Under the pieces are notes generated by a model, which was not told where the DNA came from, made no database searches, and saw nothing but the letters and a program-made list of their open reading frames with translations. A DNA stretch of 64,000 nt. Source: Leptospiraceae bacterium (GTDB lineage Bacteria; Spirochaetota; Leptospiria; Leptospirales; Leptospiraceae). The translations under genes and the position numbers were made by a program. The stretch covers positions 64,001 through 128,000 of the forward strand of contig JACKPA010000012.1 of the NCBI GenBank assembly GCA_024233865.1, written 5' to 3'. Positions 7,187-64,000 of this stretch are shown piece by piece. Every line of letters starts with the position of its first letter. Positions within the stretch are counted from its first letter, which is position 1.

Positions 7187-8146
7187 TTAAAGAAAATTCC
7201 TTTGGTAGATTAAAAAGATTGTATAAGATGCGTAGAATACCAAAAATACAATTCCTGCAAATTTATCGAATTTTTCCTGAGTTTTCATCAAACCCACCAA
7301 TAATAGTGTAGATAAAATCAATACCCATGAGTCCCTTTGCAAAAACTCAGGGCTTATTGGGATTGGTTTTACCACTGCTGTTACACCTAAAATGCCTAAA
7401 ATATTAAAAAGATTACTTCCGACAACGTTTCCAAGAGCAATATCTGCTTCTTTCCGGTAAGCGGCAACAGCACTTGTTATCATTTCCGGCATAGAAGTAC
7501 CAACAGCAACAATAGTCAAACCAATAACCGCTTCGGATACTCCGTATATTTTTGCAAGAGCAACTGAACCTTCAACCAGTACATCGGAGCCGTAAGCTAA
7601 TGCCAATATTCCCATAAAAACGAGCAAGACTCCGTGCCACCATTTGTATTTTTCCAAAGATTTTAAGTCAACATCCACGTCTATATCTTCTTCCGGTTGT
7701 TTTCGAACTTTTTTAACCGTATACCAATTGTAAAAAATGATTGACCCAACGAGGAAAAGCCCTTCCAAACGATACAAAAAATCTCCCAAACAAAACAAAA
7801 CTAGTAAAACCGTATACAATAATAGCATAGGAGCATCAAATTTCAGGAGCTTTTTGTTGATATGGATCGGATAGATACAAGCCGTTAGACCAATGATCAA
7901 GAAAATATTACTAATATTACTCCCAATTACATTTCCAATGGCGATGTCAGAATGTCCGGATAACGCTGATTGAATACAAACAACCAACTCCGGAGCAGAA
8001 GTTCCCATAGACACTACGGTTAGTCCGATAACCAATGTAGAAAGCCCGAAGATTCTTGCCAAAATTACGCTCCCTCGAACCAATCCTTCCCCCCCTACCA
8101 ACAAAAGCAAAAGACCTCCAATAATTTTAGAAATAATAAGTATCAT
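7187..8146 (-). CDS. CaCA-family Na+/Ca2+ (cation/Ca2+) antiporter, YrbG-like
   Basis: Two alpha-repeat signatures, GNVIGSNISNIF and GNVVGSNLFNILGILG, in a ~10-TM protein with an acidic central loop (PEEDIDVDVD). Confidence 0.8.
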   Translation of the reverse strand: MILIISKIIGGLLLLLVGGEGLVRGSVILARIFGLSTLVIGLTVVSMGTSAPELVVCIQSALSGHSDIAIGNVIGSNISNIFLIIGLTACIYPIHINKKLLKFDAPMLLLYTVLLVLFCLGDFLYRLEGLFLVGSIIFYNWYTVKKVRKQPEEDIDVDVDLKSLEKYKWWHGVLLVFMGILALAYGSDVLVEGSVALAKIYGVSEAVIGLTIVAVGTSMPEMITSAVAAYRKEADIALGNVVGSNLFNILGILGVTAVVKPIPISPEFLQRDSWVLILSTLLLVGLMKTQEKFDKFAGIVFLVFYASYTIFLIYQRNFL

Positions 8147-11849: not shown

Positions 11850-12881
11850 TTATATTAATCTTCTTGCCCTATACTTCCATTCCCAAAGCATTATCTCATC
11901 TTCTATATTAACGGCTTGCTCCTGATATTTTTCAAGCAAAGCATAAACCATAGAAGCTACCTCTTTAGAAAACCCTTTCTCAAGTTCTTTTTCAAATTGT
12001 TCTTCATCTTGATCTATTATCATGATCGCAAGACGAAAGACTTCATCTAAGCTTTTTAACTTTTCTAATTCAATGGAAGAGCTATTTTTTTGAGCTTCAT
12101 CTTTAATCATCACAGACAAAAAGGTTCTAATAAATATAACATCTTCTGATTTTAAATTAAAGTCAAATAATAGTTGCTTTACTTTATCTAACTCCATCTT
12201 CCTCATATGAATCCTAGCAAGGAAAACCGGATTTTCCGAATACATATTTAGATTAGAATTAGAAGAAACCAATTCAGCCGCCCGAGCTTTTTCAGTATCA
12301 ATAATAGGTCTGGCATTATAATCATCATCATTTCGGTGAGCTTTGGACTCTATAACGGTTGATATTTTCTTTTTTAATATCAATATATTCAAACTAGGAT
12401 ACCTTATTTTTAAAGTAACCATATCGGTTCTTTTCAAGTTTTCATCCGCTACAATATGATGAAATTCAAGTCCTCCTTGTTCAACAGCTCCAATGATTTC
12501 TTTTACATCCTCGTAATGATAAATAACTACAGGCAAAACGTCACTTTCCGACCCGGAATTCAAAAATATAGTTTTGATGTCTCTAGAACCACCGTGCTGA
12601 TATGGAATCACTAATTTTCCCGATTTAACATTCACAAAACTAAGTTCCCCCAATCTAAAATGGGATAAATTAAAATCGTCCCCCAAAAAAACTACTCTAG
12701 GAACTGTCACTATAATCGAATTATTTTTTGCTCCTTTAGGGATTTCAGGACCTTTAGGAGTGAACACAACATAAGTCATTTTATTAAGCCTGACTTTCAC
12801 CAAATAGCCTGCCGGTGTTTTCCTCTCTTCATAAGTAGTTTGCTGTTCTTCATCAATTTCCATATTAAAACTCCAAATCAA
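11850..12881 (-). CDS. Hypothetical protein, co-transcribed with the bEBP-like regulator
   Basis: Overlaps the upstream gene by 17 bp. No recognised motif. Confidence 0.4.
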   Translation of the reverse strand: MIWSFNMEIDEEQQTTYEERKTPAGYLVKVRLNKMTYVVFTPKGPEIPKGAKNNSIIVTVPRVVFLGDDFNLSHFRLGELSFVNVKSGKLVIPYQHGGSRDIKTIFLNSGSESDVLPVVIYHYEDVKEIIGAVEQGGLEFHHIVADENLKRTDMVTLKIRYPSLNILILKKKISTVIESKAHRNDDDYNARPIIDTEKARAAELVSSNSNLNMYSENPVFLARIHMRKMELDKVKQLLFDFNLKSEDVIFIRTFLSVMIKDEAQKNSSSIELEKLKSLDEVFRLAIMIIDQDEEQFEKELEKGFSKEVASMVYALLEKYQEQAVNIEDEIMLWEWKYRARRLI

Positions 12882-14199
12882 ATTGCTTCATCTTATACTG
12901 TAATGATCCTCTTGAGATTCCCAAAGCTTTGGACATTCTCATTTGATTGCCTGCAAAAAGTTTACTGGCAAGAATAATTTTTTGTCTTTCCATATTCTCC
13001 ACACACTTTCTTAAGTTCAAATCCTCATTTGTAAGAGTTATAGGTTGTGGCTCGCAAGTAGAAGCAAGATAGTTTTCATCCAAATCAATTTCACTTCCTT
13101 TAGCTCTTACTATTGAATTTTCCAGCAGTCCCCTAAGCTCTTTTAAATTTTCGGAATAATCATGCTTAGCCAACAAATCCAAAGTCCTATTAGAAAGTTT
13201 CAGACCGGAACGACCATGCAAAAGTTTTAATTCATAAAACATCTTCCGTATTACTTCCAAGAGAACTATTTTATCCAATAAATTTAACTTTGGTAAAAAA
13301 ACAGAATTCTCATTCAAAATATCCCAAAATGGTTGATAGGTATCCACTCTACTTTCATTTCTATCAATAAAAAATAAACTACAAGCTTTTTTTTCTTTCT
13401 GTAAAAATTGATAAAACAAGTTTTGCTGTCCCACGTTAAAGGAATCCACACCGTCAAAAACAATTACTCCATGACGAATCATCTTAGTCCAATTTTCCAA
13501 AGATTTTTCCAACTTTCCAAGCTGTTCCGGTATTGAATTGATAAAAATAAAATCACCGCTATATTCAAATTTTCTGTAAATATATTTAGCCAAAGATTTT
13601 TTGCCGCTGCCATTTCCGCCACCTATCAATAAAACAGGTGGAAAAAAATCGCTATTGATTTTCTCAAAACCACTAGAAAAAGAAACCAATAATTCAATTA
13701 TTCCAAAATCGCTTTTGTCAGAAAACTCAATTGCCTTTTCTCCATCATCATTTTTGTATTTAAGAGAATATATCTGACCGACCCTATTGGCAAACATCCC
13801 TATGAATAAAGACATAATGTCTTTGCATACACCCGTAAACTCAAACAAAACAAACCCTACTACATTGCCTCTTTTAGCAATAATTCTTGAAACCAAAGCA
13901 AAATCCGAATAATTAAAATAAAGCTTAAACTCCTTTGCATAAAATATCAAAGGAAGAATTGAAGCTTCCACTTTCTCCAAATGCCCCCCCCCCCTCGATA
14001 AAAACCCATAATAAAAACCATCTTGCCCATAACCGGAAATGGCACATTCAATAAAATAATCTTTACCAACTGGTGCAAGAGCTATAGTCCCACAATTTGC
14101 TCCTACTGCATTCACAATTTGCTCAAAAACTAAAGACAATTCATTCTCTAAGCTTTCAGGAGTAAGGTTCTCATTGAACAATAAGTTATACAATATCAA
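12865..14199 (-). CDS. Degenerate sigma-54-activator-like (AAA+ central domain) regulator with C-terminal Fis-type HTH
   Basis: Walker-A-like GGGNGSGKKSLA. Central-domain remnants IVFDGVDSF..QQNLFYQFLQ, VFLPKLN.LDKIVLL and ENLKELRGLLENSI. C-terminal HTH MRMSKALGISRGSLQYKMKQF. No GAFTGA seen. The ORF contains a G11 tract. Confidence 0.55.
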   Translation of the reverse strand: MILYNLLFNENLTPESLENELSLVFEQIVNAVGANCGTIALAPVGKDYFIECAISGYGQDGFYYGFLSRGGGHLEKVEASILPLIFYAKEFKLYFNYSDFALVSRIIAKRGNVVGFVLFEFTGVCKDIMSLFIGMFANRVGQIYSLKYKNDDGEKAIEFSDKSDFGIIELLVSFSSGFEKINSDFFPPVLLIGGGNGSGKKSLAKYIYRKFEYSGDFIFINSIPEQLGKLEKSLENWTKMIRHGVIVFDGVDSFNVGQQNLFYQFLQKEKKACSLFFIDRNESRVDTYQPFWDILNENSVFLPKLNLLDKIVLLEVIRKMFYELKLLHGRSGLKLSNRTLDLLAKHDYSENLKELRGLLENSIVRAKGSEIDLDENYLASTCEPQPITLTNEDLNLRKCVENMERQKIILASKLFAGNQMRMSKALGISRGSLQYKMKQFDLEF

Positions 14200-17760: not shown

Positions 17761-20277
17761 ATGATAAAGAAGAATATTAGAATTAGCCATCCAGCAGATA
17801 TATTAATCAAACAAGTTGAGACAAAAGGAAAATATGATTTAGAAAATGGTAGTCTCAATCATTTTAGTTACGAATCTGCTTCTATCGAGATTTCAGCTAT
17901 TGCATTACAACTACAAGAAGATTCGGCTTTTAATTTAGTTCAATTTGAATTTATTGAAGGCGAAAAAGAGTTTTTACCGGAAATTTTTAGATTTGAGATT
18001 TCAAGAGACGGATTAGTTTGGGAACCTATTATTCAAGAGTATAAATACTCTAGTTTAAACAAAAATTTCTGCAAATGGAACTTTTCGTTGGTTCAAACAA
18101 ATTTTTTTAAATTGGTAATCAAACCAACAAGGAGAACCCAGAAGGGAGATTATAAAGTTTCATTCAAAAACTTCAAATTAAAAATATCCGGTATTGAGAA
18201 AATTATAGCCAGTTCTGAAAATGATAGGTATTGGGTAAAAGAAAACCTTGTTGATGGCAGAAAAGATTATGGTTGGTCTTCTAAAGAAAAGAAACAATCT
18301 AGTGAAGAGTTTGTTTTATTTGATTTGGGTTCTATTAATAAAATTGAGGAATTTCGCCTTTTAACTAAAAACGAATCCGAAACGAATTTTCCTGAAAATT
18401 TCGTTGTTTATTATAGCGAAGATGATTTGTCTTGGTTTCAATTGCTAGATGAACCTCACTTTCTCTCTGAGCCTGCAACTTGGTACTCATGGAAGTTTTT
18501 ACCTATAAATATGAGGTTTATGAAAATTGTATGTTTATGCGAAAATTTAAATTCCCAAGGTTTGTATGTAAGCCAGTTTGTTGAAGTTGAGATATATGCT
18601 TCTACTGATGAAATTAGTTTTTCTGGGAAAATTAATAGTTTGGATCCCCCCCCCTACTCTTCTATAATTAGGTCTGGTTTGGTTCGCCTTGCCGGTAATG
18701 GTGAATCAAGAGAAGGAGTTGTCGTCCAGGGTAATGATAGAAGACTAATGGATGCTACAATTGAGTTTAAAGGAATTGTAGAATTAGCCAGCGATGGCGA
18801 AGATAGAGAAGGAGTTGTCGTCCAGGGTAATGATAGAAGGTTAAAAATTGCTACTGAAAATAATTATGGTTTGGCAAAATTAGCTAAAAATAGAGAATGT
18901 AGAACGGGGATTGTTGTTCAAAGTGATGATGATAGACTAAGAACCGCAACTACGGAATATTCTGGGATTGTGGAATTGGCTGAGGACGGGGAAACTAGAC
19001 CTGGAACTGTTGTTCAAGGTAACGATAGCCGTTTGAAAAAAGCAACTACAAAAGATTACGGGTTAACTGTAATGGCTGAATTAGGTTCTGATTTACCTGG
19101 AAGAGTTATTACCGCTGATGATCCAAGAATTAAAAAAGCTACCACCACAAAAGAAGGAATTTTAAGATTTGCTCACAATGGCGAAAGTGAAGGATTATGT
19201 GCTGTTCAAGGCAGTGATAAAAGGTTAAAAGAAGCAACTACCGAAAGTTTTGGAATTGTGAAACTAGCTCACTCCGGAGAAGGAAATGAAGGAAAGGTCA
19301 TTCAAGGCAATGATAAAAGGTTAAAGGAAGCCACTGAAACTGAACCCGGCATTGTATCATTTGCCAAACATGATTCTAATGTAGCCAACAAAGCAGTACA
19401 AGCAAACGATCCAAGACTATATGATTCTAGAGAAGCGAAACCGCATACGCATGATTATGCTCCAAAAGTTCATGACTATAATTCTCATACCGGACTGATT
19501 CGCCTAAAAGGAGAAGTTCAGTCTCAGTTTAAACATATCGTTGTTCCACCTCAGAATCATGGAGTGATATACGGGAAAAATGAAGCAACATCGGGAGCTG
19601 GAATTGTTGGAGTAGGTGAAGATGAAGGGGTTTTAGGTTATTCTAATGATTATGGAGTTGTTGGCTATTCAGGAAGTTCAAAAGAAGATTCGGCTGGTAT
19701 ATGTGGGTTTGCTAAAAAAGGATTCGGAGGGGAATTTACTTCCCAGTCTTCTTATGCTTTATGCGCTAATGGTAAGGGAGTAAAGAAAAAAGATATATCC
19801 GGTTCCGGAAAAGCTGTATTGGCATTGGGAAACTCTGAATTTCATGGAATGATTAAAATTGAAGATGACAATGCTTCTCATTGTATTGCTGCATGTTTTA
19901 CTTTGCTTCAGAATGAAATTATCTCGGAAGGAGACATTATCGTTATTGGCGAAAAAGATGGTAAAATAGCAAAATCAAAAACAGCGTATTCTACTAGAGT
20001 TATTGGAGTTGCAGTTTCTTCAATGTCGATACAGCTAGGACGGGATAAAACAAAATCGGAAGATGTGTTAGTTGCTCTTTATGGCATGGTAAAAATTAAT
20101 GTAGATGCTTCCGATGGTGCTATTCATTTTGGTGATTTACTTGTTTCTGGTCTAACCAGTGGTCATGCAGTAAAAGCTGATACCAATAAACTAAAGCCAG
20201 GAATGATTGTTGCAAAGGCTTTAGGTGAATGTAAGAAAGATAGATTACTTATTCCAGCTATTCTAACTATTCAATAA
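17761..20277 (+). CDS. Phage-tail-fibre-like repeat protein with two N-terminal discoidin (F5/8 type C)-like domains
   Basis: ~9 tandem ~28-aa repeats (GIVELAxDGExRxGxVVQGNDxRLKxATT) resemble the tail-fibre 'GxVxLAT-xE-xxGTD' repeat. The protein also has a Gly-rich segment and a C-terminal beta-rich domain. A C9 homopolymer in-frame at 18646-18654 encodes PPP. Confidence 0.6.
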   Translation: MIKKNIRISHPADILIKQVETKGKYDLENGSLNHFSYESASIEISAIALQLQEDSAFNLVQFEFIEGEKEFLPEIFRFEISRDGLVWEPIIQEYKYSSLNKNFCKWNFSLVQTNFFKLVIKPTRRTQKGDYKVSFKNFKLKISGIEKIIASSENDRYWVKENLVDGRKDYGWSSKEKKQSSEEFVLFDLGSINKIEEFRLLTKNESETNFPENFVVYYSEDDLSWFQLLDEPHFLSEPATWYSWKFLPINMRFMKIVCLCENLNSQGLYVSQFVEVEIYASTDEISFSGKINSLDPPPYSSIIRSGLVRLAGNGESREGVVVQGNDRRLMDATIEFKGIVELASDGEDREGVVVQGNDRRLKIATENNYGLAKLAKNRECRTGIVVQSDDDRLRTATTEYSGIVELAEDGETRPGTVVQGNDSRLKKATTKDYGLTVMAELGSDLPGRVITADDPRIKKATTTKEGILRFAHNGESEGLCAVQGSDKRLKEATTESFGIVKLAHSGEGNEGKVIQGNDKRLKEATETEPGIVSFAKHDSNVANKAVQANDPRLYDSREAKPHTHDYAPKVHDYNSHTGLIRLKGEVQSQFKHIVVPPQNHGVIYGKNEATSGAGIVGVGEDEGVLGYSNDYGVVGYSGSSKEDSAGICGFAKKGFGGEFTSQSSYALCANGKGVKKKDISGSGKAVLALGNSEFHGMIKIEDDNASHCIAACFTLLQNEIISEGDIIVIGEKDGKIAKSKTAYSTRVIGVAVSSMSIQLGRDKTKSEDVLVALYGMVKINVDASDGAIHFGDLLVSGLTSGHAVKADTNKLKPGMIVAKALGECKKDRLLIPAILTIQ
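18700..19330 (+). repeat. Coding tandem repeats (~84 bp x ~9) of the tail-fibre-like protein
   Basis: Reiterated ..GTTGTTCAAGG(T/C)AATGAT(A/G)GA.G..TAAAA.. blocks encode VVQGNDRRLK units. Confidence 0.6.
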
Positions 20278-29810: not shown

Positions 29811-29840
29811 CCCCCCTCGGTCCCCCCGTGAACGGGGGGA
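29811..29840. repeat. R2 G/C-rich hairpin element (CCCCCC-TCGGT-CCCCCCGTGAACGGGGGG)
   Basis: 6-bp G:C stem with GTGAAC loop, preceded by a second C6 run, in an otherwise ~35% GC region. Confidence 0.55.
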
Positions 29841-29842
29841 AG

Positions 29843-30472
29843 TCAAAAGCTCTTCAAAACAGACAGTTGCAAACCGCCGTTTCCGTAGCCGATGTATTTT
29901 TCTACAATTGCGTTTCCTCTCAGTCCCACTCGGACTACAAACCCTGCAAACTTTAGTCCCTGCCATCCGATTTCTGTCATAAACATTGGATCAGCACCCT
30001 CCGCGTGGTGAGCGGAGTCGAACCATACACCTCTTCTTCTTTTGAAGTTGATGTAAGATACTCCCACTCCAAAATTGCCATAAAAGTCGAGCATGGAACT
30101 TATCTTGTATCTGTATTGCAGGTAGAGTATGTTGTTCACCATTTTGTAGTCTGCGTCGGTCATCGAGCCTGGTCGAGATGTAGAGCGTGTGTATTCCAAG
30201 ATGTATCCCAATCGCATGGAATCCGATATATTCAAGAAATCCGGTTCAAACTGGAATCCTCCTCCAGCAGCAGCACCGTTTACCTTTCCTGCCGGTGTGC
30301 CATTTCCAAAATAGTGAAACTGTAGTCCGATCAAGTTTTCATCTTCTTCCTTTTTCACTGGTTCCGTCTTTTTGGTATCCGGTTTTTTTGCTTTGCTTGG
30401 CGGTGTTTTTTTTCCACTTTGAGCAAGCATCACACTTGGTAATAATAATACGATAAGCAATACTTTATACAT
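29843..30472 (-). CDS. Outer-membrane beta-barrel-like protein with Lys/Pro-rich N-terminal linker
   Basis: Signal peptide. Alternating hydrophobic beta-strand pattern, C-terminal aromatic (..KSF). Confidence 0.4.
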   Translation of the reverse strand: MYKVLLIVLLLPSVMLAQSGKKTPPSKAKKPDTKKTEPVKKEEDENLIGLQFHYFGNGTPAGKVNGAAAGGGFQFEPDFLNISDSMRLGYILEYTRSTSRPGSMTDADYKMVNNILYLQYRYKISSMLDFYGNFGVGVSYINFKRRRGVWFDSAHHAEGADPMFMTEIGWQGLKFAGFVVRVGLRGNAIVEKYIGYGNGGLQLSVLKSF

Positions 30473-34237: not shown

Positions 34238-34450
34238 AAGTATAGCATTAAGTGCCTTTTTAGTGTTATATATATATATGGTAATTGTGTTAATTTTGTG
34301 AAGAGTTTCATGTGAATCACCTCGTGTGTTATCGTCCTAAAGACAAAGTGATTGGAAACAAAAATTTTTTGCAAGTCTTTTATGAATTATTTTTCCAAGC
34401 GGAAAGAAAAAAATTACGTTTTTCCCCCGAATAGCTAAAATTCACTTTAA

Positions 34451-34486
34451 GCTTCATTTACCCCCGTTCACGGGGGTAAGTGAAGC
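34451..34486. repeat. R2 G/C-rich hairpin element (inverted orientation) embedded in a 16-bp-arm palindrome GCTTCATTTACCCCCG-TTCA-CGGGGGTAAGTGAAGC
   Basis: Core CCCCCGTTCACGGGGG is the reverse complement of the 29822 and 63741 cores. One mismatch in the 16-bp arms. Confidence 0.55.
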
Positions 34487-34682
34487 CAAAACCTGAATTT
34501 AAACCGAATGGGGGGGAATAAATTCGTTAATTATGTCTTTTTATTCAGTAATTTTTTCATTCTTTCCAATTCTTTTTTTAATGAAAGGAAAGAAAAGAGT
34601 TTTTTCAAAAACCTTATTGCCAAAAAATAGGAATATCCGTATACTAAAAAACAAGCATAAATCCCAAAAATCACGGTAAACT

Positions 34683-35516
34683 ATGTTAACTTATAAAGAA
34701 AAAAAGAACTTTAATATAGAAGAAATGGAGATTGAGGACAGTAAACCGGTGGACAACATTTTTTCTGAAAAGCAAATGAGACTACTTACCGAGCCTTTGT
34801 ATACCTCATGGAAACCCAAAGAGCACATAAATTTTTTGGTAACTGCCAATGTTGGAATATTCACCGAAATATTAGAAAACCCAATTGTTCCAGATGTTTT
34901 GCTAAGTCTGGAAGTAGATATACCGGAAAGCAGAAAAAAAAAGGAAGATTTATGTTACTATTTGGACAAAATCGGCAAAGCACCGGAGGTAGTGATAGAA
35001 ATCGTATCCAATAAGGAAGGAAACGAATTGGATAGTAAGCTAAAAGACTATGGGAAAATCGGAGTTTTGTACTATACCGTTTATGATCCCGATTTACACA
35101 TATTGAAAGGAAATCCGGTAAGTAGCTTTAAGTATAAAAAAGGAATGGCATTTAGAATAGAAAAATCTTGGTTTGAGGAAGTGGGTTTGGGACTCAGATT
35201 ATGGGATGGAATTTTTGAGAATCAACATGGAACATGGCTTAGGTGGTGTGACTACTTTGGAGAAGTGATTCCTACCGGAAAAGAGTTGGCAGAACTGGAA
35301 AGACGTAAAACGGCAATAGAGCAAAAACAGAGAATAGAAGCTCAAAAACAAAGAATGGAGGCTCAAAAACAAGCTGAAGTAGAGAAAAATTGCAGAATGG
35401 AAACTCAAAAGCAAGCTGAAATAGAGAAAAATTACAGAATGGAAGCACAAAGACAAGTTGAACATTTGGCTCAAAAGTTACGTGAACTTGGCTTTAATCC
35501 GGAACAAGATTTGTAA
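34683..35516 (+). CDS. Uma2-family (DUF820) putative endonuclease with C-terminal EAQKQ coiled-coil repeats
   Basis: PDVLLSLEVDIP...PEVVIEIVSNKEG..D...K...Y...GVLYYTVYDP is the PD-(D/E)xK Uma2 signature. 39-bp tandem repeats at ~35330-35450. Confidence 0.7.
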   Translation: MLTYKEKKNFNIEEMEIEDSKPVDNIFSEKQMRLLTEPLYTSWKPKEHINFLVTANVGIFTEILENPIVPDVLLSLEVDIPESRKKKEDLCYYLDKIGKAPEVVIEIVSNKEGNELDSKLKDYGKIGVLYYTVYDPDLHILKGNPVSSFKYKKGMAFRIEKSWFEEVGLGLRLWDGIFENQHGTWLRWCDYFGEVIPTGKELAELERRKTAIEQKQRIEAQKQRMEAQKQAEVEKNCRMETQKQAEIEKNYRMEAQRQVEHLAQKLRELGFNPEQDL

Positions 35517-35535
35517 AAATTGGATGGCAACAGAT

Positions 35536-35778
35536 TCAGAAAGAAGGCAAGTATTCTGATTTTTGGTTGCACTTTTTTTCATTTTGAAAGGCTTGCAAAC
35601 ATGTTGCCAGTGCTATAGGAAACAATTCATTGTAAGAACTTGGAGCTAAAATAACAATATCCAGATAACGAATACAAGTTTTTATGTTCTCTTTTTTGGT
35701 ATCATCTTCGCAAGCTGATTTCTGACTTGTACAACTTAATATAAAAATTAAGCTAAAAAGTAATGTCATTTTTTTCAT
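35536..35778 (-). CDS. Small lipoprotein
   Basis: FILSC lipobox; 80 aa. Confidence 0.3.
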   Translation of the reverse strand: MKKMTLLFSLIFILSCTSQKSACEDDTKKENIKTCIRYLDIVILAPSSYNELFPIALATCLQAFQNEKKCNQKSEYLPSF

Positions 35779-35814
35779 AATTACCCTCCGCGATCTCCGC
35801 GACTCCGCGTGAGA

Positions 35815-36444
35815 CTATTTCAACCAAGCTTCCCATTCTATCCGAACTTTATCTTTGATAGAAGTGAAAACAACCGACGGTCTCTCTACCTTAAAATCCG
35901 ATAGTAAAATATCAAAGGTTGCGTTTATTTTCAAACTACCATTTTCTTGCTTGGAGCTTGCCGTAAAACTAACGGGTTTGGTTGTTCCTTTGATCGTTAG
36001 ATCGCCTTGGAATGAATAGGTTCCTTTTTTGGTAAGTTCAAGGTTTTTGACAGAAAAGTTAATTTCTTTCTGGTCTGGATAGCCAAGAATTTCCCACATA
36101 TGAGAATCCCGATTTTCATCTCCGGTGTGCATATTCACAATAGTGCAACTAATTGAAAAAGGAACTTCCGCAGAAACACCATTCACATCCGGAATAACTT
36201 TCAGATTTTCTACCTTTGGTTTTATGCACTCCCCTTTTACCTTTTTGAATACGTGATCTGCAAAAAATTTGATCTTTAGCTCTTTGAAAACTACACCTGA
36301 TTTTTGTTCAATGGGTGCTTTCTTTTCTTGAGCATACAAAGAAAAAACAAAAAAACTAAACAAAAGAGCAATAAAATATTTCATAAAATCCCTCAAAAAT
36401 AAAAAGTAGCAATAGAAACAGATAAAGCCGCAAAGCCCAACCAA
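35815..36444 (-). CDS. YceI-family periplasmic polyisoprenoid-binding-like protein
   Basis: Likely start at MKYFIALLF (~36384). Motifs NRDSHM and GDLTIKGTTKPV. Confidence 0.6.
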   Translation of the reverse strand: MVGLCGFICFYCYFLFLRDFMKYFIALLFSFFVFSLYAQEKKAPIEQKSGVVFKELKIKFFADHVFKKVKGECIKPKVENLKVIPDVNGVSAEVPFSISCTIVNMHTGDENRDSHMWEILGYPDQKEINFSVKNLELTKKGTYSFQGDLTIKGTTKPVSFTASSKQENGSLKINATFDILLSDFKVERPSVVFTSIKDKVRIEWEAWLK

Positions 36445-36992
36445 CCTACATTACGCATATCAGTCAAGCCCTGGGCTGAAGCATTGTGAACCGCCTTTTC
36501 ACCAAGGTAAGGTAAGGCAAGCATACAAGGAAGGTGAATAAAGATCATTGCTTTATGAGTAAAGATAGTACTCCAGCCTTTTTGTGGTGTTACATCCACT
36601 TTTTTGGGAGCCATAAAAGATAGAAAAGCAGTAGCACCATAAAGAGTAAAGGTTAAAAAACCTAACTTACCGTGATTTCCCATTGGCTCTTCATAACCCC
36701 TTTTGGACATAGCATAAAGTAGCAATTTGTCATCAGAAGGTGCCATTAAGTATGACGTTAAAATATAATTGGGAAGTCTTCTGCTTAATTTGTATTTGCT
36801 GTATTCCTCTTTGTAAGAGGCTTCACCGGCAACATTGGTTGCAAGCCAGCTAACCCAGGTAGCCAATCCTAATGCCTGGTGCCATTCCAAATAAGAACGT
36901 CTTTTTTTAAGGTATTTGGATGAGATGGATTTTTCCTCAGCGTATAAGGAGAATGTAAATAAGCAAAGTAGAATTAAGAATCTATTTAACAT
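36393..36992 (-). CDS. Secreted/membrane hypothetical
   Basis: Signal peptide; His-containing hydrophobic segments. Confidence 0.35.
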   Translation of the reverse strand: MLNRFLILLCLFTFSLYAEEKSISSKYLKKRRSYLEWHQALGLATWVSWLATNVAGEASYKEEYSKYKLSRRLPNYILTSYLMAPSDDKLLLYAMSKRGYEEPMGNHGKLGFLTFTLYGATAFLSFMAPKKVDVTPQKGWSTIFTHKAMIFIHLPCMLALPYLGEKAVHNASAQGLTDMRNVGWLGFAALSVSIATFYF

Positions 36993-37053
36993 ATACCAAT
37001 CTTTTAACTGCCATTACAAGAATCTACAAAAATATATTTGACATGTTTGCGAT

Positions 37054-37269
37054 TTGAGGGCATTCTTGAACCGTATGAAAACCATAGGGAATAAAAGGAC
37101 TCGTACACCGGAAGAATGTCTGATTACCCAAAATAAGTTGATCTTTGAATTAGAGCAAATCAGACCCAATAAAAAGAAAAAAGGGATTATATTAAAATTT
37201 AAAACTTGGAAAGAATCGGAAGAGTTTGATTTAAAGAGAGCGGTTGATTACGTTGAACCCAAAGGATGA
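37054..37269 (+). CDS. Small hypothetical, overlaps the next gene
   Basis: 71 aa. 26-bp overlap with the next gene. Confidence 0.25.
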   Translation: MRAFLNRMKTIGNKRTRTPEECLITQNKLIFELEQIRPNKKKKGIILKFKTWKESEEFDLKRAVDYVEPKG

Positions 37270-37717
37270 TTTAACCATTGTTTGCAAGTTGTTTATAGAA
37301 AAGGATGTCAAATTTCTTATTTGTGGCGCCAGGGCATGTGCTCTCCATGGTTATATTCGAGCGACTGAAGACATTGATATACTAGTTCAAAATAATAAAA
37401 AGAATATAGAAAAAGTAATCGAATGTATAAATGAGTTATATCCCCACCTAGAAGAAGTTACCGTAGATGATTTGATTTCCAATATTGTCTTAAAAATTTT
37501 AGATGAACCTGAATTGGATATAATGCTTTCCGCTTGGTCGGTAACCTATGAAGAAGCTCAAAAAGATGTATGCAAAGTTGTTTTTAACAATCTGGAAATA
37601 CCTTTTCTTGGTTTGGAATCGTTGTTAAAAAGCAAGGAGACTGAGAGAGAACAAGACAAGTGGGATTCTAAGATACTAAGAGAGATTTTGAAAAAGAAGC
37701 ATAAAACAAAGGAATAA
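37244..37717 (+). CDS. Nucleotidyltransferase-fold-like small protein
   Basis: LICGARACALHGYIRATEDIDILV resembles the minimal nucleotidyltransferase GG/GS...D.D motif. Confidence 0.3.
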   Translation: MITLNPKDDLTIVCKLFIEKDVKFLICGARACALHGYIRATEDIDILVQNNKKNIEKVIECINELYPHLEEVTVDDLISNIVLKILDEPELDIMLSAWSVTYEEAQKDVCKVVFNNLEIPFLGLESLLKSKETEREQDKWDSKILREILKKKHKTKE

Positions 37718-37719
37718 AT

Positions 37720-39039
37720 ATGAAAAATATAGTAATATTACTTTTTATTGTAATTTTAAGCCTTGGTTGTGCCGGAAATCAAAAACCGGAAAAAAAAACC
37801 GAGATAAAATTATATGAACTGGATAGCTCCAATATTCGAACCGAAAGATTTAAAAATACTGGGAATTTGAAAGGCAAAGGACCGGTTCTTGTGAATACTC
37901 CTGCTAGCCAACTATCGGAGGATCAAATCAAGAACTTACCAAAACACGGAATTTGGGAAGAATACGCTGAAAAAGAGAACGTATCTACTAACGTGAAATA
38001 TAGTGTTTTGGAATCCAAGGGAGAATATAAAAACGGTAATCGAGAAGGTTTGTGGAAATATTTTTATGAAGACAAAAAGCTCTTTAAAGAAGTGAACTAT
38101 TCCAATGGTAAAAAAAACGGATTAGAAAAGAAATTTACCGGGAACGGTGATCTTATCAAGCAAGCAAGCTATATTGATGATCTGTTGCAAGGCGAATATT
38201 GGGAAAAATCGCAGAAAGGGATTTTGGAAAACGAAGGAGAATATACCGCCGGACAAAAAGCCGGAACCTGGAAAGAATACTACCCGGAAACGGGAAATCT
38301 TAAAAGTATAGCCAACTATTCCAATGATAAAAAAAATGGGAATTTTGTTCACTACTATGAGGATGGAAAAACCCAAATGGCTGTTGGAAAATACAGCAAT
38401 GATTTGGAAACCGGTCATTGGCAGTATTTTTATAAAAATGGAAACGTGCAAAGCGAAGGCGACTATAAACCAAGGAATTCCGATTTTCAAGACGAGCAAA
38501 AAGATACGCCGATGGCAAAAATTTCTCCCAAAGCGATCAAAGTGGGAACATGGAAACAGTACTACCAGTCCGGAGATTTATTTTCTACTGGTTTACGGGA
38601 AGGAAAACCCATGGGTGAATGGAAGTTTTATTACAAAGGAAACAAACTGGCTGCTAAAGGAATTATGACAAATGATATTATGATGAAGACAGGAGAAACG
38701 TTTACCAAAGACGGACTTATGGATAAAAAGGGCAATTTTATCCACTCCATTATCAAAATCGACCAAGAAAAAGATGAATTTTCCATGGATTATAAACCAT
38801 CAGCTCCTTTTATCTACTTTCGAGATGGGAAAAAGCATTTGGAAATCACAACTCGGAAAATTGGTGGGAAAAATGTTGCTTACGAATACGATGAAAATGA
38901 AAGCAAAATCGGAGAAGGTCCTTATGAGGCAATGATTGGAAAGAAAAACGGTTGCTGGACTTCCAAAGGTGAAAAGGTTTACTACGTTTTGGGAAAGGTG
39001 AGAAAAGGGGTCATGGCAAAAGCAGCCAATTGTGAGTGA
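37720..39039 (+). CDS. MORN-repeat (MORN_2/YwqK-like) lipoprotein
   Basis: Lipobox LSLGC. Many repeats of G.YKNG..EG.WKYFYE.G.L. Confidence 0.65.
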   Translation: MKNIVILLFIVILSLGCAGNQKPEKKTEIKLYELDSSNIRTERFKNTGNLKGKGPVLVNTPASQLSEDQIKNLPKHGIWEEYAEKENVSTNVKYSVLESKGEYKNGNREGLWKYFYEDKKLFKEVNYSNGKKNGLEKKFTGNGDLIKQASYIDDLLQGEYWEKSQKGILENEGEYTAGQKAGTWKEYYPETGNLKSIANYSNDKKNGNFVHYYEDGKTQMAVGKYSNDLETGHWQYFYKNGNVQSEGDYKPRNSDFQDEQKDTPMAKISPKAIKVGTWKQYYQSGDLFSTGLREGKPMGEWKFYYKGNKLAAKGIMTNDIMMKTGETFTKDGLMDKKGNFIHSIIKIDQEKDEFSMDYKPSAPFIYFRDGKKHLEITTRKIGGKNVAYEYDENESKIGEGPYEAMIGKKNGCWTSKGEKVYYVLGKVRKGVMAKAANCE

Positions 39040-39173
39040 AGTAAAATACCTGCATCGCCAAATTTCTTCACGGTGAAATTCATGCTTCGAGACAGAATTT
39101 TTATCTATTTCAAGATATTCTCACTCAGTTGTGATTTTGTCGCCGTATTTTCCATTTGCCACCCTTAAACCTT

Positions 39174-39737
39174 TTACAAAAGCATAGCTTTGATTCTTTC
39201 CAAAGTATTAGTTCTACCTTCGGATAAGGGTTCCAGTTCTTTCAACTTGTATAAATCAACATCCCTGGCAAGGTCAAAAATTTTATCATCTTCTACGTGG
39301 AGTAGAATGTCTAGAAGTTTGTTTGGCTTATTTTCCAATAGTAAATTGAATACTTTTGTAGAAAGCCTTTTGTTCAAGCGAAACAGGATCATGGCGGCTT
39401 TTTCTGCGTTTAGATAAACAATAGATTCATAGATGTATTGAGGCTCTAATCCGGCTACGATGTTCAAAAAAAGGGATGGTTCCAAACTTTCGGCTATCAT
39501 AGCACCAACGGGAGGGTCAATATAAGATCGAATTACATAATGGATAATAAAGTTCGGGATGTATTTTATTATAACGGTGTTGGCTTGGATAGACTTTCGG
39601 ACGGCTTCCATCTTGACGTTGTAAAAGCCTTCGATAAACAATCGAACTTCATGAATTGTTTCAGGTGGTAAGTCTGCGATGGAATGAGGTATATCTCCAC
39701 CAACTAATTCTTCCAAAAAAACTAAATCTTCTTCCAT
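39174..39737 (-). CDS. Hypothetical protein
   Basis: ORF only. Confidence 0.3.
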   Translation of the reverse strand: MEEDLVFLEELVGGDIPHSIADLPPETIHEVRLFIEGFYNVKMEAVRKSIQANTVIIKYIPNFIIHYVIRSYIDPPVGAMIAESLEPSLFLNIVAGLEPQYIYESIVYLNAEKAAMILFRLNKRLSTKVFNLLLENKPNKLLDILLHVEDDKIFDLARDVDLYKLKELEPLSEGRTNTLERIKAMLL

Positions 39738-39777
39738 GGTATTCAGCCATATTGCTTAAACCTTAGATAATTTTCAA

Positions 39778-40998
39778 TTAATTAAAAAAAAATTCCATTT
39801 CTTTTTTGAGCCAAAGGATACGAACGATAAGCATAGCCAAAAGCACAATGCCAAACCACAAAATTCCAAAATCATTGTAAGATTTTTTAGAATTTTTGTA
39901 CAAAATGATCATAGGGATGCTGAGAGTAAACATTCTCATTATGTTATCGTAAGTTAGCCAATAACCTTGTTCGGCAATCCCGGCAGTAAAAAGGATGAAT
40001 AAAATTGGAAGAAACCAAACAAAATCTTGAACCGTTTTAATATTTCTTAAATTCAAAAGCAGTAGCAGATAAAAAATAAAGATCGGATATTTTGCCAGTT
40101 CTCGAACAAAAGGTGATAGATTCATTGGAGTCGAAAACGAAATGCTTTTAAAAAAGCCAAAAAACGGATAATCGATCAAATCAAGAAATGTTAGTGGATA
40201 TGTTCCGGGATTGGCATCTAAAAAAAATCGAAGGTAGAAGACAAAGGCAAAATAAAAAATTATAGACCCCCCGACTAGTCCAAGCAAACTTTTAGTCTCA
40301 TTACTCCCCCCTGTTGGGGGGAGTATTTGGACTGAACTAGAACTAAAGCTATTTGGGGGGTAGCTTCTTTTCAGCCATAACAATAACAATAACATCCCCA
40401 TTATGCTGAGAGCTGATTCTTTGATCAAAACGAAAAAGCAGCCAAGCAGTAGCAAAACAGATATCTTTGCCGGTTTGTGGCAATCTTTTTGATTCAAAAA
40501 GTAGAATATAAAAATCGTCCAAGAGCATACCAAAGAATCGGATAGTAGTAATAGGTTTGAGTTGATTACAAAAGGCGAAAACAGATGGAAATTCGCCAAA
40601 TAGCGGATTTCTTTTTTGCAGAGTTTTTTGAGCATAACAAAGGACATAATGTGAGATAGGTGTAGTATTGCTAAAGTGATAACCGGATAGGCTTTTGTGC
40701 CAAATATTTTTGAAAAAATTGAGGTTAGCAAGGGAAGCCCGATTCGAGTAAATCGAACACTAAATGAGTCCAAAATCGGAAGTTGCGAAGAAACACCACT
40801 CAAATACTGATTGATCAAATAAAAAAATTGCCCATCATATCCACCACTTTTATATACCACAAAACCTTTATCAACAAAATCGGGATTCAGGTTCAAAAAT
40901 CCTTCCCAGATCCCAATCATCGAAGAAAGGTTGTAATCATAAGGTTTTATGCGATAATAAATTAAAATTACGTTTAAAATAATGTATAAAAATATCAT
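39778..40998 (-). CDS. Polytopic integral membrane protein (GT-C-like/unknown) carrying an in-frame G/C-rich hairpin insertion
   Basis: ≥9 predicted TM helices. Hairpin CTCCCCCCTGTTGGGGGGAG at 40304-40323 encodes ..LPPTGGS.. in-frame. Confidence 0.5.
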   Translation of the reverse strand: MIFLYIILNVILIYYRIKPYDYNLSSMIGIWEGFLNLNPDFVDKGFVVYKSGGYDGQFFYLINQYLSGVSSQLPILDSFSVRFTRIGLPLLTSIFSKIFGTKAYPVITLAILHLSHIMSFVMLKKLCKKEIRYLANFHLFSPFVINSNLLLLSDSLVCSWTIFIFYFLNQKDCHKPAKISVLLLLGCFFVLIKESALSIMGMLLLLLWLKRSYPPNSFSSSSVQILPPTGGSNETKSLLGLVGGSIIFYFAFVFYLRFFLDANPGTYPLTFLDLIDYPFFGFFKSISFSTPMNLSPFVRELAKYPIFIFYLLLLLNLRNIKTVQDFVWFLPILFILFTAGIAEQGYWLTYDNIMRMFTLSIPMIILYKNSKKSYNDFGILWFGIVLLAMLIVRILWLKKEMEFFFN

Positions 40999-41003
40999 TT
41001 TTT

Positions 41004-42152
41004 CTATGGGACATTTCGACTACGCTCAATGTCCGAATTATGCTTTCTCTTATCGTAGTCGTGCGTTCCCTGAGCGTAGTCGAAGGGAACAGCCATCACT
41101 AATTTCGCCAAAGTTTCTATAAACATCGGATAAATTCCCGATGCAGGAACTCGATAATATTCGATGATTCCATTTTTGTGGGCGATTTCTTTCAATTCTT
41201 CGCCAATTTCAAACAATGTTTCCAGATGATCACTCACAAAACTAATGGGAATAATAGCTACTCGTTTAACACCTTCGTTTCCCAGTTGTTTTAGCATGTC
41301 AATTGTATTAGGTTCTGTCCATTTTCCTTTACCTACCCTACTCTGAAATGATAAATAATCTCTCCCCATAAAGCCAGCTTTTCGCAAATTTGTCGTAATT
41401 TTAGCCCTACAATCCTCTAATTCTTGAACGTAAGTATCTCCTTTTTTGATCAACCTCATTGGTATTCCATGGGCAGAGTAAACCAAAGTGAGATTTTGCC
41501 AATCTTCAATCGGTTCTTTTCGATTCAATTGAATAAAGTTTTTTACCAATTTCCCATAAAAATAATCCAATATCAATTGAGTTGCTGCCTGTAAATAAGA
41601 TGGTTCTTTATAAAATGGTCCGATCCAACCTGGCTCTTTTCTTGGATCAGTCCCGATAATTTGTTCTATTATATTTACAACACTTAAAACGGTTGATCGA
41701 GAAAAATGAGGAAACAAAGGTAGTAAAATATTATCTTGGGAAGGAATTAACCTGGATTTTTCCATATCTCGCAAATTAGGATAACCGGCTGTCATTGCAA
41801 TATCAACAGACCAATCTTCACCTGTTTTGCTTTTTAGCAAAGTTTCGAGAGTTTTAGCTTGTTTTTCCGTTTCGGGAACAAGAGGAGAACCACCGCCAAA
41901 GCCCATTTTTAAATAACTTTTGGCAACTTCCGGAGTTCGTCTTTTGGTTATAAACTTTGCCAGCTTTAAACGAAAAAATTCCGGTAGAGGAACATCAAAA
42001 ACAAAAGGATCACTCAAAACATCCCAAAGAAACTTTTCTATTTCCGCAGGATTTCTTGGACCACCAAAGTTAATTAATAATACTCTTTTTTTCAAACTAT
42101 TATTCCGTTTTTTTTGGTTCCAGATAAAACTTTTTGATATATGCGACTTCAA
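41004..42152 (-). CDS. hemH: Ferrochelatase
   Basis: VLLINFGGP..FL.DVLSDP, GGGSPL, and C-terminal SDHLETLFEIGEEL. Confidence 0.8.
   Translation of the reverse strand: MKSHISKSFIWNQKKRNNSLKKRVLLINFGGPRNPAEIEKFLWDVLSDPFVFDVPLPEFFRLKLAKFITKRRTPEVAKSYLKMGFGGGSPLVPETEKQAKTLETLLKSKTGEDWSVDIAMTAGYPNLRDMEKSRLIPSQDNILLPLFPHFSRSTVLSVVNIIEQIIGTDPRKEPGWIGPFYKEPSYLQAATQLILDYFYGKLVKNFIQLNRKEPIEDWQNLTLVYSAHGIPMRLIKKGDTYVQELEDCRAKITTNLRKAGFMGRDYLSFQSRVGKGKWTEPNTIDMLKQLGNEGVKRVAIIPISFVSDHLETLFEIGEELKEIAHKNGIIEYYRVPASGIYPMFIETLAKLVMAVPFDYAQGTHDYDKRKHNSDIERSRNVP
41010..41092. repeat. R1 palindromic element, extended copy downstream of hemH
   Basis: TTTCGACTACGCTCAATG ... ATCGTAGTCG ... CCCTGAGCGTAGTCGAAGGGAAC. 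Confidence 0.6.
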
Positions 42153-62286: not shown

Positions 62287-64000
62287 TTACCCTACTTTAA
62301 AAGTTTTGTTTTGTATGCCTCGATAATAATTATGGATTGTCGTTTTTTCTACGATGCTCATTTTCGGAAAACTGTCCAAGACTGTTAGCATCTCTTCTTC
62401 TGTAAGTCCATACAGATGGAACACCATTGCGTCGATCTGTGCTTCCCACTTGGAGGCCTCACCCCCGTCCCCTCTCCAATCTGGAGAGGGGAGTTGCTTT
62501 GCGGCAAGTATCTTGTCTACGAGGGTGATGAATGGCTTTTGCAAGTCTGAATTGTCGATTGGTGCTTTTGGGATTGGGAGTTGTTCAACATATTGAGTAA
62601 AAAATCTATATACATGGCTACCTAGTGAATTTGCTATTTTTTGGTAATAAAAATTTAACAAATTACTATTTAATATACCTAAAATATACTTTGAATTACT
62701 ATCTATGATATAAGATGTGTTATTAAAATAATAATTTTTTTCAACCATTGAGTACGAAACATTTTTAGATATATCCGGATATACAATTTTTGACTTTTCA
62801 AAAATAAAATAATAGTCACAATCCCTTAACTCCCACCAATAACTGCCTTGATCTAATCTTTCGTAAAGACCTTTTCCTTTTCCAATTCCAGAATCTCCAA
62901 GTTTTTTTAAATGATTGTAAATTTCAGGATAGGATTTTTTAAAAAACTGTTCCGGATTTTCATTTCTTCTATTTATGTTTGTCCACCCTGATGGTATTAA
63001 AATTAACCATAAATTATTCCATTCATAAGTATATCTGTGAATATCTCTCCCTCTTAAAATGGGTTTAATAATTTCATTGTTCTTTTTATCTTTTTTGCAA
63101 AGCAATTCTTTTGTTTCTGTATTAATGATAAATGCTTCATTAAAACCCGTTATAAGTCCCCTATAAATTTTTATACCTAAATCTTTTAATTTTACTCCTC
63201 CTTGTTCTATCTTCTTCTTTATATTTTGTTCCTTAAAATCTCCTAGAGAAAACGATGTATCCTCTAAATCATTTTGATTAATCAGATGACCTTCGATGTT
63301 AACATATTCTGGTATATTGAACTTATCGTAATCGGGTGAATCAATTGTTACAACACGTAATCCATTCGTAGGGACAGGTCTCAGACCTGTCCCTACATTC
63401 TCACGTTGAAATATCGTTACATTCGTATCCACCGTTGCAGATTCAAATACTTTTTGCCCTCCAAAATCTATAATTTGTAATAGCTTAGTTTTTGTCTTAA
63501 AAAATTTTCGTAAATTCTCTCCATAACGAGCTCGCATCCATTTATTACTTGTGATGAATGTTAAAACACCTTTATCTTTTAATAAATTAAATCCACTTTC
63601 ATAAAAATAAGTGTATAAATCGGAAATAGAATTAAAAACAGTATAATATTTTTGTAAAATAGGCTTAATTTCCTTAATAGATTCTTGTCTTACATACGGC
63701 GGATTTCCAATCACAACATCAAAGCCACCTTCCCCCCCAGCCCCCCGTGAACGGGGGGAGTTACTTGCGTTAGTTACTCCCCAGCTCGCGGGGGGCGGGG
63801 GGGAAATCCCAAACATGTGTTCAGGGTCGAACCAATCCGCAGATTTGAGTCTGTCGTAAGGATTCCATTCCGCAATCTTGCTAGCTGAATCTTTAGAAAA
63901 CTGATTTTTTAGAAGAAATTCAGAAATTTCTTTGCGTTTCTCTTTATCTTTCTCTCGCAGTTCTTTTTTCTCTTTATAAGTCCTTGCATCAAAGTGTTGT
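62287..64000 (-). CDS. Type IIG/PglX/MmeI-like N6-adenine DNA methyltransferase (N-terminus beyond window) carrying four in-frame palindromic insertions
   Basis: The reading frame stays open upstream of the listed Met to the window edge (..AEWNPYDRLKSADWFDPEHMFG..). Motif IV is FDVVIGNPPY. The C-terminus ends IDAMVFHLYGLTEEEMLTVLD, typical of Eco57I/MmeI/PglX-family enzymes. Palindromes at 62469-62491, 63368-63396 and 63741-63758, plus a G-run segment at 63781-63803, are all read in-frame. Confidence 0.65.
   Translation of the reverse strand, partial: QHFDARTYKEKKELREKDKEKRKEISEFLLKNQFSKDSASKIAEWNPYDRLKSADWFDPEHMFGISPPPPASWGVTNASNSPRSRGAGGEGGFDVVIGNPPYVRQESIKEIKPILQKYYTVFNSISDLYTYFYESGFNLLKDKGVLTFITSNKWMRARYGENLRKFFKTKTKLLQIIDFGGQKVFESATVDTNVTIFQRENVGTGLRPVPTNGLRVVTIDSPDYDKFNIPEYVNIEGHLINQNDLEDTSFSLGDFKEQNIKKKIEQGGVKLKDLGIKIYRGLITGFNEAFIINTETKELLCKKDKKNNEIIKPILRGRDIHRYTYEWNNLWLILIPSGWTNINRRNENPEQFFKKSYPEIYNHLKKLGDSGIGKGKGLYERLDQGSYWWELRDCDYYFIFEKSKIVYPDISKNVSYSMVEKNYYFNNTSYIIDSNSKYILGILNSNLLNFYYQKIANSLGSHVYRFFTQYVEQLPIPKAPIDNSDLQKPFITLVDKILAAKQLPSPDWRGDGGEASKWEAQIDAMVFHLYGLTEEEMLTVLDSFPKMSIVEKTTIHNYYRGIQNKTFKVG

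Follow-up and report, generated by a model that had tools for sequence, protein, structure and literature searches.

Palindromic repeats that are read in frame within bacterial genes have precedent (PMC3733652, PMC10969869). These papers, in summarising Ogata et al. 2000, describe Rickettsia palindromic elements (RPEs), about 100-150 bp in length, in frame in unrelated and apparently functional genes of Rickettsia. Units of repetitive extragenic palindromic (REP) elements are headed, at the 5' end, by a conserved GTAG or CGTC, and intragenic REPs are documented (PMC3733652). REP and REPIN elements are mobilised by RAYT transposases (PMC3116915, PMC3733652). G+C-rich hairpin elements of mitochondria are not removed from transcripts (PMC4478555, PMC2800124). 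Here, we consider 64,000 nucleotides from a Leptospiraceae bacterium (assembly GCA_024233865.1, contig JACKPA010000012.1, positions 64,001 to 128,000; hereafter, the window). Our subject is element C, a 94-nt palindrome inside the gene for a polytopic membrane protein. An earlier note, made from the sequence alone, had assigned the hairpin at its centre to a mobile family that tolerates coding insertion. We conclude, with a probability of roughly 0.7, that element C is a copy of a short (about 72-96 nt), non-coding, G/C-clamped palindromic repeat family, similar to RPEs, REPs and MITEs (miniature transposable elements with inverted repeats), and retained where it is harmless.

The hairpin was originally described as a perfect 8-bp G:C stem, with a TGTT loop, at positions 40304-40323. 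The sequence there, CTCCCCCC-TGTT-GGGGGGAG, has that loop and eight perfect pairs, but the stem is not all G:C; seven pairs are G:C and one is T:A. As the earlier note had it (..LPPTGGS..), the hairpin is read in frame, and its open reading frame (ORF) is translated there as ..ILPPTGGS... Two further G/C runs had been listed nearby, read as SYPPN and VGGS. These are a G6 and a C6 run that pair together: a run map shows the outer runs (Table 1) to be mutually complementary and 33 nt either side of the apex. Hence, the feature is a 94-nt interrupted palindrome and the 20-nt hairpin, though real, is merely its apex. Including an A...T pair immediately outside the runs, the element spans 40266-40361 (96 nt, or 32 codons). 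It is built from an outer G:C clamp, imperfectly paired A/T-rich arms, and the apical G:C hairpin. Folded as single-stranded DNA, element C has energies of -22.5 kcal/mol (forward strand) and -22.7 kcal/mol (reverse strand), with z scores of -4.7 and -4.6; none of 200 shuffled sequences was as stable. Note that, since the energies are equal for both strands, there is no hint of RNA-specific structure. Element C is free of stop codons in the frame of the host gene and encodes 31-32 amino acids, at residues of about 213-244.

The host protein matches NCBI entry H7A23_19570, from an uncultured Leptospiraceae bacterium, at 100% identity. Its ORF is intact and keeps the 49 invariant columns of the orthologue alignment. 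The stretch PPTGGSNETKSLLGLVGG is missing from all 18 orthologues aligned (32-65% identity). DNA was available for the closest orthologue, as a 1.7 kb Logan contig of 31% G+C. This has no C or G run of at least 5 nt anywhere, and no hairpin at the site. The comparison for an indel, suggested in the earlier note, is thus in favour of an insertion. Logically, an in-frame hairpin might be nothing more than a conserved PPTGG loop, encoded by G/C-rich codons, and in-frame reading alone would agree with this. Our data rule it out, leaving a probability close to nil. Neither the motif nor its residues are found in any orthologue, there is no G/C run in the closest orthologous DNA, and a search of 1.84 billion representative proteins gave no relative of the encoded peptide, bar a fragment of itself. 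Furthermore, the encoding DNA forms a palindrome of 94 nt, which has a sister in a non-coding region (see below).

The location had been given as a loop between transmembrane helices. To this the AlphaFold model of the protein, built on the orthologue alignment (mean pLDDT 88.4, pTM 0.90), lends support. The model has a coil at residues 213-231, its longest, between helices 196-212 and 232-259. The sole segment with pLDDT below 50 is residues 219-225. The first ~20 residues encoded by element C correspond to this longest coil and the low-confidence segment. In the model, the final ~14, SNETKSLLGLVGGS, begin helix 232-259.

Element C is not alone. The census of C/G hairpins proposed in the earlier note was run on the window, and again favours its view. 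Searching for C5+-N2-10-G5+ hairpins identified four loci (29822, 34461, 40306, and 63741; seven overlapping matches in all), which belong to four related elements, named A to D. In 100 dinucleotide shuffles, the same search gave an expectation of 0.09 and a maximum of 2. Note that the window is 30-40% G+C throughout (35% overall). The number of G/C hairpins is far beyond chance. Element B, between genes, is a sister of element C. The two have matching layouts, with arm lengths of 32/33 and 33/33, and one of the arms shows ~70% identity between B and C (shuffle P ~0.01). Overall, B and C are ~65% identical. The fold of B has z scores of -6.2 and -5.7. An nhmmer search of the window, with a profile made from B and C, gave these two alone at full length and no degenerate copies. 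Element A, a solo unit, is 3 nt beyond the stop codon of ORF 29843..30472 (reverse strand). Element D consists of two inverted ~33-nt units, each with a C-run/loop/G-run hairpin, closed by a C7/G7 clamp (-32.6 kcal/mol, z = -6.1). A 16-nt core, CCCCCGTGAACGGGGG, is common to A, B, and D. Hence, the 64 kb contains two copies of B/C type and three with the core; a further 10.7 kb examined contains none. No element resembles an intrinsic terminator: A and B have no T tail and were not flagged by a terminator scan, and C and D are within ORFs.

Element D provides a second intragenic case. The earlier note had remarked on the same behaviour in a methyltransferase (MTase) gene, and this is borne out; hairpin 63741-63758 lies inside element D and is read in frame. 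The insertion is between the MTase motifs WFDPEHMFG and GFDVVIGNPPY. Thirteen orthologues have WFDPEWMFG-x-xDG-FDVVIGNPPY at this point. To this the window adds exactly 24 codons, ISPPPPASWGVTNASNSPRSRGAG, equivalent to 72 nt and so to the length of element D. Judged by these alignments, the MTase is a cleaner insertion case than the membrane protein. Alignments to solved MTase structures begin at FDVVIGNPPY, just past the insertion, and are uninformative about its placement. A protein search with a concatenated query for the D peptide returned no match. Separately, the MTase ORF contains a third type of G/C hairpin at 62458-62484, CCCCTCTCCA-ATC-TGGAGAGGGG, in frame as ..LPSPDWRG... This is in a C-terminal linker that varies, being ~7 residues shorter in some orthologues, and a substitution in a sibling strain, at 62456, adjoins it.

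Table 1. Elements and host genes in the window, and in-frame elements of the same plan as element D on other contigs.
Feature	Position or contig	Strand	Context	Basis
Host gene, 406-aa polytopic membrane protein	39778..40998	-	AZOBR_p60025 / GT39-like cell-surface glycopolymer family	Homologues, alignment
Element C: outer C6, 33-nt arm, C6-TGTT-G6 apex, 33-nt arm, outer G6	40267..40360	.	Membrane protein gene	Sequence, run map, inverted repeats, fold, arm dissection
Apex hairpin, CTCCCCCC-TGTT-GGGGGGAG	40304..40323	.	Element C	Sequence
Outer C-run clamp	40267..40272	.	Element C; gives GG of ..VGGS.. on gene strand	
Outer G-run clamp	40355..40360	.	Element C; gives PP of ..SYPPN.. on gene strand	
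Element A, solo unit: C6-TCGGT-[C6 GTGAAC G6], no outer G-run partner	29811..29839	.	Intergenic	
Element B, 93-nt sister of C: C5, 32 nt, C5-GTTCAC-G5, 33 nt, G7	34424..34516	.	Intergenic	
Element D, 72-nt palindrome: C7-AG-[C6 GTGAAC G6]-AGTTACT..AGTTACT-[C4 AGCTCGC G6]-C-G7	63732..63803	.	MTase gene	Fold, alignment
Second host gene, Eco57I/TaqI_C-type N6-adenine DNA methyltransferase	62287..64000	-	Runs past window end	Pfam, alignment
In-frame D-plan element	L180		Eco57I/MmeI-type MTase	
In-frame D-plan element	L174		Linker of flavodoxin-FAD reductase	
In-frame D-plan element	L201		CzcA/ZneA-type RND pump; exactly between two Pfam stretches	24 extra residues vs PDB 4k0e
In-frame D-plan element	L222		Aldehyde dehydrogenase inter-domain linker	~19-24 extra residues vs PDB 6mvr
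In-frame D-plan element	L229		NACHT ATPase	

Around the orthologous gene in three related Leptospiraceae/Spirochaetota lineages (3 x 21 kb), there are no such hairpins. Hence, the family is lineage-restricted within Leptospiraceae, which a repeat that has invaded would be expected to be. We also scanned more widely for the 16-nt core, using one genome per species; the matches listed are mostly from GC-rich genomes. At 101 of the 170 core occurrences listed (genomes, viral contigs, and the three in the window), a second C-run is present no more than 30 nt upstream. In this same set, G-runs are upstream in 3 cases and downstream in 14. Given the bias towards upstream C-runs, we conclude that a C-run, a spacer, and T-C5-6-GTGAAC-G5-6-A together form a recurrent, strand-asymmetric unit. 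Among the matches listed, the unit is found in Myxococcota, Chloroflexi, SAR116, cyanobacteria, Dehalococcoidia, many Alphaproteobacteria, and viral contigs. In some lineages, the spacer holds a small covarying hairpin. A SAR116 contig (L038) matches element D in its two hairpin loops, GTGAAC and GCTCGC, and in how the parts are ordered. Similarly, element A resembles Caldilineaceae and Myxococcota copies (L010/L044) beyond the core used for searching. The apparent recurrence of the core across phyla was unexpected. No linked gene emerged among three hits with multiple copies (L020, L022, and L025), where there were only intergenic repeats and spurious GC-rich ORFs. A full-text search found no paper mentioning the core sequence. 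A variant was seen in five viral contigs of 64-72% G+C (L125, L126, L128, L144, and L148), comprising GCCCCCTCC, a covarying hairpin, then CCCCCTCCCCCGTGAACGGGGGAGGA. This alphaproteobacterial/phage variant recurs several times per contig just 5' of ATG or GTG, and its 3' arm overlaps a Shine-Dalgarno-like GGAGG.

Metagenome and viral contigs were also scanned for double clamps, C6NNC6...G6NNG6. Since N was permitted to be C or G, the matches are mostly homopolymer artefacts; 100 of the 145 listed (L162-L306) are within 150 nt of a contig end. Poly-C...poly-G palindromes of 60-150 nt are present at, or near, many contig ends. These are almost certainly sequencing or assembly artefacts, and can be mistaken for hairpin elements or telomeres. 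Among the matches, ~14 are genuine elements of 67-80 nt with the plan of D, in flanking DNA of 26%-69% G+C. One, almost equal to D in size, is in another metagenome-assembled genome (MAG) from Spirochaetota (L011 5921-5993), with 71 nt between its clamp runs, or 73 nt with the flanking G...C pair. Five genuine elements, with the arrangement C6-NN-[C6 loop G6]-linker-[C6 loop G6]-NN-G6, are in frame in long ORFs of real genes (Table 1), on unrelated contigs. Hence, residing in frame in loops and linkers is a habit of such elements, beyond the window. Scanning the metagenome collection for a B-type apex with A/T shoulders gave no matches, so this lineage is not in that collection. In one contig (L249 816-893), a double-hairpin element is nested in another clamped hairpin, CCCCCGAGAAGA...TCTTCTCGGGGGG.

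Elements like these might themselves be artefacts, of poly-G/poly-C chemistry or of chimeric hairpin reads in MAG contigs. The abundance of contig-end palindromes in the double-clamp scan would be consistent with this. So too would the behaviour of two Logan contigs, which stop within the outer G-run of element B and within a palindrome at 41009-41090 (at position 41038). Even so, we regard an artefact as very improbable. Elements C and D are internal to the contig, with short runs (6-7 nt), structured A/T-rich arms, and long ORFs preserved. A Logan assembly made independently (SRR12358676) matches positions 34513-41038 of the window at 100% identity, element C included. Another MAG of this species (GCA_020440835.1) aligns without gaps over 11.7 kb, at 99.83% identity, and has element D with two substitutions. 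Furthermore, five bona fide genes elsewhere contain homologous plans in frame. The Logan contig ends fit with hairpins and homopolymers disturbing assembly. We had taken the contig end in B as a sign of repetitiveness but downgraded this, since loss of coverage at homopolymers and hairpins explains it equally well.

Three points concern these same regions. First, 11 of the 20 differences between the sibling MAG and the window lie in a 134-nt stretch (63855-63988) of the MTase gene, immediately upstream of D, which suggests either diversifying selection on this restriction-modification gene or a recombination tract. Second, given this cluster, we rejected the idea that an excess of substitutions in D (P = 0.007) reflects relaxed or structural selection. 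Third, the palindrome at 41009-41090 is of a different kind. It is an 82-nt double hairpin, GGACATT-12nt-AATGTCC plus GTTCCCT-12nt-AGGGAAC, in which the two loops are perfect 14-nt inverted repeats of one another. It forms the 3' end of a ferrochelatase gene, 10 nt upstream of the membrane protein gene start. Residue 353 is where homology with the ferrochelatase orthologue stops; the repeat encodes the final 29 residues, AVPFDYAQGTHDYDKRKHNSDIERSRNVP.

How might such a situation arise? In our proposed scheme, the repeats would have colonised the AT-rich chromosome of a Leptospiraceae lineage. Copies would land at almost any site, with a trans-acting enzyme, not from a nearby gene, probably mobilising them. 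Selection would then purge every copy that breaks a gene. Intragenic survivors would be those with a multiple of three bases, read in one of two stop-free frames, and placed in a structurally tolerant loop or linker. The C- and G-runs would become Pro-Pro and Gly-Gly, and the arms a disordered loop. In the membrane protein, the 3' arm would also provide the first turns of the following transmembrane helix. For the host protein, the hairpin itself need not do anything. Only two of the six frames are open in element C, and likewise in D, and in each case the host gene reads one of these two. Element B, which is intergenic, has stops in all six frames. This pattern is expected if landing is random and copies that break genes are selectively removed. 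Two parts of the description in the earlier note, a family and tolerance of coding insertion, agree with the census, the 24-codon MTase insert, and the five genes elsewhere. The third part, that the family is mobile, we infer.

Several observations weigh against a mobile repeat. The membrane protein has a net excess of 17 residues compared to the closest orthologue, and 24 compared to others. This is less than the 31-32 residues that element C encodes. Hence, either the addition was not clean or the alignment is ambiguous in this low-complexity transmembrane/loop region. Based on the AlphaFold model, replacement of the original helix start by the 3' arm may explain the shortfall. The C-encoded peptide has no second copy among the 1.84 billion representative proteins, and no near-identical second copy of element C was found, B being only ~65% identical overall. 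The sibling contig covers D alone of the elements, and D is present there; an empty site was not seen in any near-identical strain. No direct target-site duplication was found at A to D. Instead, in 15 of 16 elements, 1-2 flanking bases prolong the palindrome; AT...AT, at six of the 16, is self-complementary, and other flanks (G..C, A..T, and TT..AA) are inverted rather than direct. Finally, no transposase or RAYT was identified by Pfam among the 30 ORFs of the window, or in the annotated flanks of contigs L120 and L155.

These points raise an alternative. A fold-back or template-switch error, at a G/C run, could have duplicated host sequence in situ to make a local palindrome, and the lookalikes would have arisen independently. 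The missing target-site duplication, transposase, and near-identical copies, together with a net insertion shorter than element C, all agree with such an origin. So does the finding that elements with like clamps can have wholly different interiors (for instance, element D and L011 5921-5993). Conversely, shared sequence across elements is not predicted by independent origin. Elements B and C share arm lengths and significant arm similarity, and the 16-nt core is common to A, B, and D. Beyond the window, D and L038 share both loops and the order of parts, and A resembles L010/L044 outside the core. The same asymmetric upstream C-run occurs at 101 of the 170 core matches listed. We therefore consider a local origin quite unlikely and favour a dispersed repeat.

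It is also conceivable that the host selects the element as a cis-acting signal, kept for its structure. This could be a translational pause between transmembrane helices, a regulatory RNA, a site for a protein or the nucleoid, or a recombination or replication signal. The structures are certainly very stable (z scores of -4.6 to -6.2), and one of the two sibling substitutions in D (C6-GCGAGC-TGGGG to C6-GCGAGC-GGGGG) restores a pair in hairpin 2. Conservation of the core unit extends across phyla, and in some lineages its middle hairpin covaries; in alphaproteobacterial and phage contigs, the 3' arm, GGGGGAGGA, is just 5' of start codons. However, the elements are missing from all orthologues of both host genes (18 and 13) and from the related Leptospiraceae loci, and are found in unrelated genes and in intergenic DNA. 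Rfam 15, at gathering thresholds, has no matches in the window or in 11 related loci. Searching Rfam with C and D at E<=10 returned only generic hairpins below threshold, the best being twister-P3 (20.4 versus 39.9 bits) and miRNA precursors. Fold energies are alike for both strands, with nothing to indicate structure at the RNA level, and there is no terminator T tail. The excess of substitutions in D belongs to a wider cluster of differences (63855-63988) and so is not clean evidence of selection. On balance, a cis-acting role is unlikely and the repeat family remains our preferred explanation.

We next compare the repeats with the described systems. The window elements resemble RPEs as the cited papers portray them: both are short palindromic repeats of an AT-rich genome, in frame in genes and also intergenic, missing from orthologues, and located in surface or loop segments. 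The differences are size (72-96 nt for the window elements), host (a Leptospiraceae MAG), homopolymer C/G clamps, the nested C6-loop-G6, and a core that crosses phyla. We consider element C an analogue of RPEs rather than a member, judged by description and by host. Resemblance to REPINs lies in element D, where two inverted ~33-nt hairpin units fold into one long hairpin, and in the coexistence of a solo unit (A). REP units are likewise imperfect palindromes, of 20-40 nt, found singly or as inverted doublets that make one hairpin. Unlike REPs, units of A to D start with C-runs and lack GTAG or CGTC at the 5' head. The sole GTAG is at the 3' end of element C, where the last G of the outer G-run meets a flanking TAG. 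Furthermore, REPINs are overwhelmingly extragenic and near-identical within a genome, whereas the copies in the window have diverged. The cognate RAYT (a Y1 transposase) of such systems has a single-copy gene, typically with the repeats on its flanks; no RAYT was seen in the ~75 kb examined. With MITEs (QMITE1 of Coxiella, Correia elements, and ERIC/BOX; PMC10969869) there is similarity in size class, terminal inverted repeats, non-coding nature, and occasional in-frame residence. The window elements are 72-96 nt, within the class of about 50-500 bp, are non-coding, and have C-run and G-run termini that pair. In contrast to MITEs, no target-site duplication was found at A to D, no parent insertion sequence with matching ends was seen, and the 'terminal inverted repeats' are homopolymer runs.

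Two other systems are relevant. Small dispersed repeats (SDRs) of cyanobacteria, in the Nostocales, are reportedly 21-27 nt in length, form hairpins, and insert in genes and in themselves. The nested clamps here (C-run...[C-run loop G-run]...G-run), and the element within a clamp in L249, recall this. Note that the likeness is one of description only, and is a lead rather than a test. In addition, among the metagenome relatives, several have coding for PPL.KGG peptides in the cyanobacterial style. The GC clusters, double-hairpin elements, and repetitive hairpin-forming elements of mitochondria are likewise G+C-rich (double) hairpins of very AT-rich genomes, in intergenic DNA and intragenic variable regions (PMC4478555, PMC2800124). 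They differ in being organellar, from fungi and sponges, whereas the window elements are in a bacterial chromosome; this likeness, too, is one of description. The elements are a new family of palindromic repeats tolerated in coding sequence.

A broader proposal is that the elements belong to an undescribed, cross-phylum superfamily of tiny, G/C-clamped, nested hairpins. These would spread horizontally (viral contigs carry them) and reside routinely in frame in genes, depending on either a widely conserved enzyme that recognises the homopolymer clamps or SDR-like self-nesting. The unit would comprise a C-run followed by either a short spacer or a covarying small hairpin, and then T-C5-6-G-NNNN-C-G5-6-A, with a ~70-nt form, C6-NN-[hairpin]-linker-[hairpin]-NN-G6. 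This is possible, but we hold it tentatively and with more doubt than belief. If such kinship is true, the elements would be very small, very widespread DNA that is mobile or selected for structure, and the question of how REP-like elements originate would become more directly testable.

With the repeat family, a free-living spirochaete lineage joins the few bacteria whose proteins demonstrably include translated palindromic, selfish DNA. The proteins are reshaped: the membrane protein has a disordered loop and a helix start, the MTase has a 24-residue loop beside its NPPY catalytic motif, and the ferrochelatase has a replaced C-terminus. Low-complexity PP...GG inserts from such elements inflate protein families, and the elements can be confused with poly-G/poly-C artefacts. 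They may also contribute to assembly breaks at palindromes.

Other features of the window were apparent. There are two small G+C islands, one with three direct CTCCGCG repeats between convergent genes (35784-35811) and one with a CTCCGC-GTGGTGA-GCGGAG hairpin inside ORF 29843..30472 (29992-30020). Lone C tracts also occur in this 35% G+C genome: C11 at 13984-13994, C9 at 18646-18654, C7 at 8089-8095 and 54140-54146, and C6 at 21884-21889. By coordinates, C11 is within ORF 12865..14199 (reverse strand) and C9 within ORF 17761..20277 (forward strand); three of the five tracts are followed by TAC. Such tracts may be sites of slip-strand (phase) variation, or else solo clamps left by elements that have decayed. 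A 2-kb stretch (2029-4040) has no ORF of at least 110 amino acids and no Rfam match at the gathering threshold. Lastly, cumulative GC skew reaches a minimum at about 12.8-16 kb. ParA- and ParB-size ORFs are found there, beside a sigma-54-type activator, with synteny to contigs L157, L159, and L161. From these sequence features, the window may be next to the replication origin.

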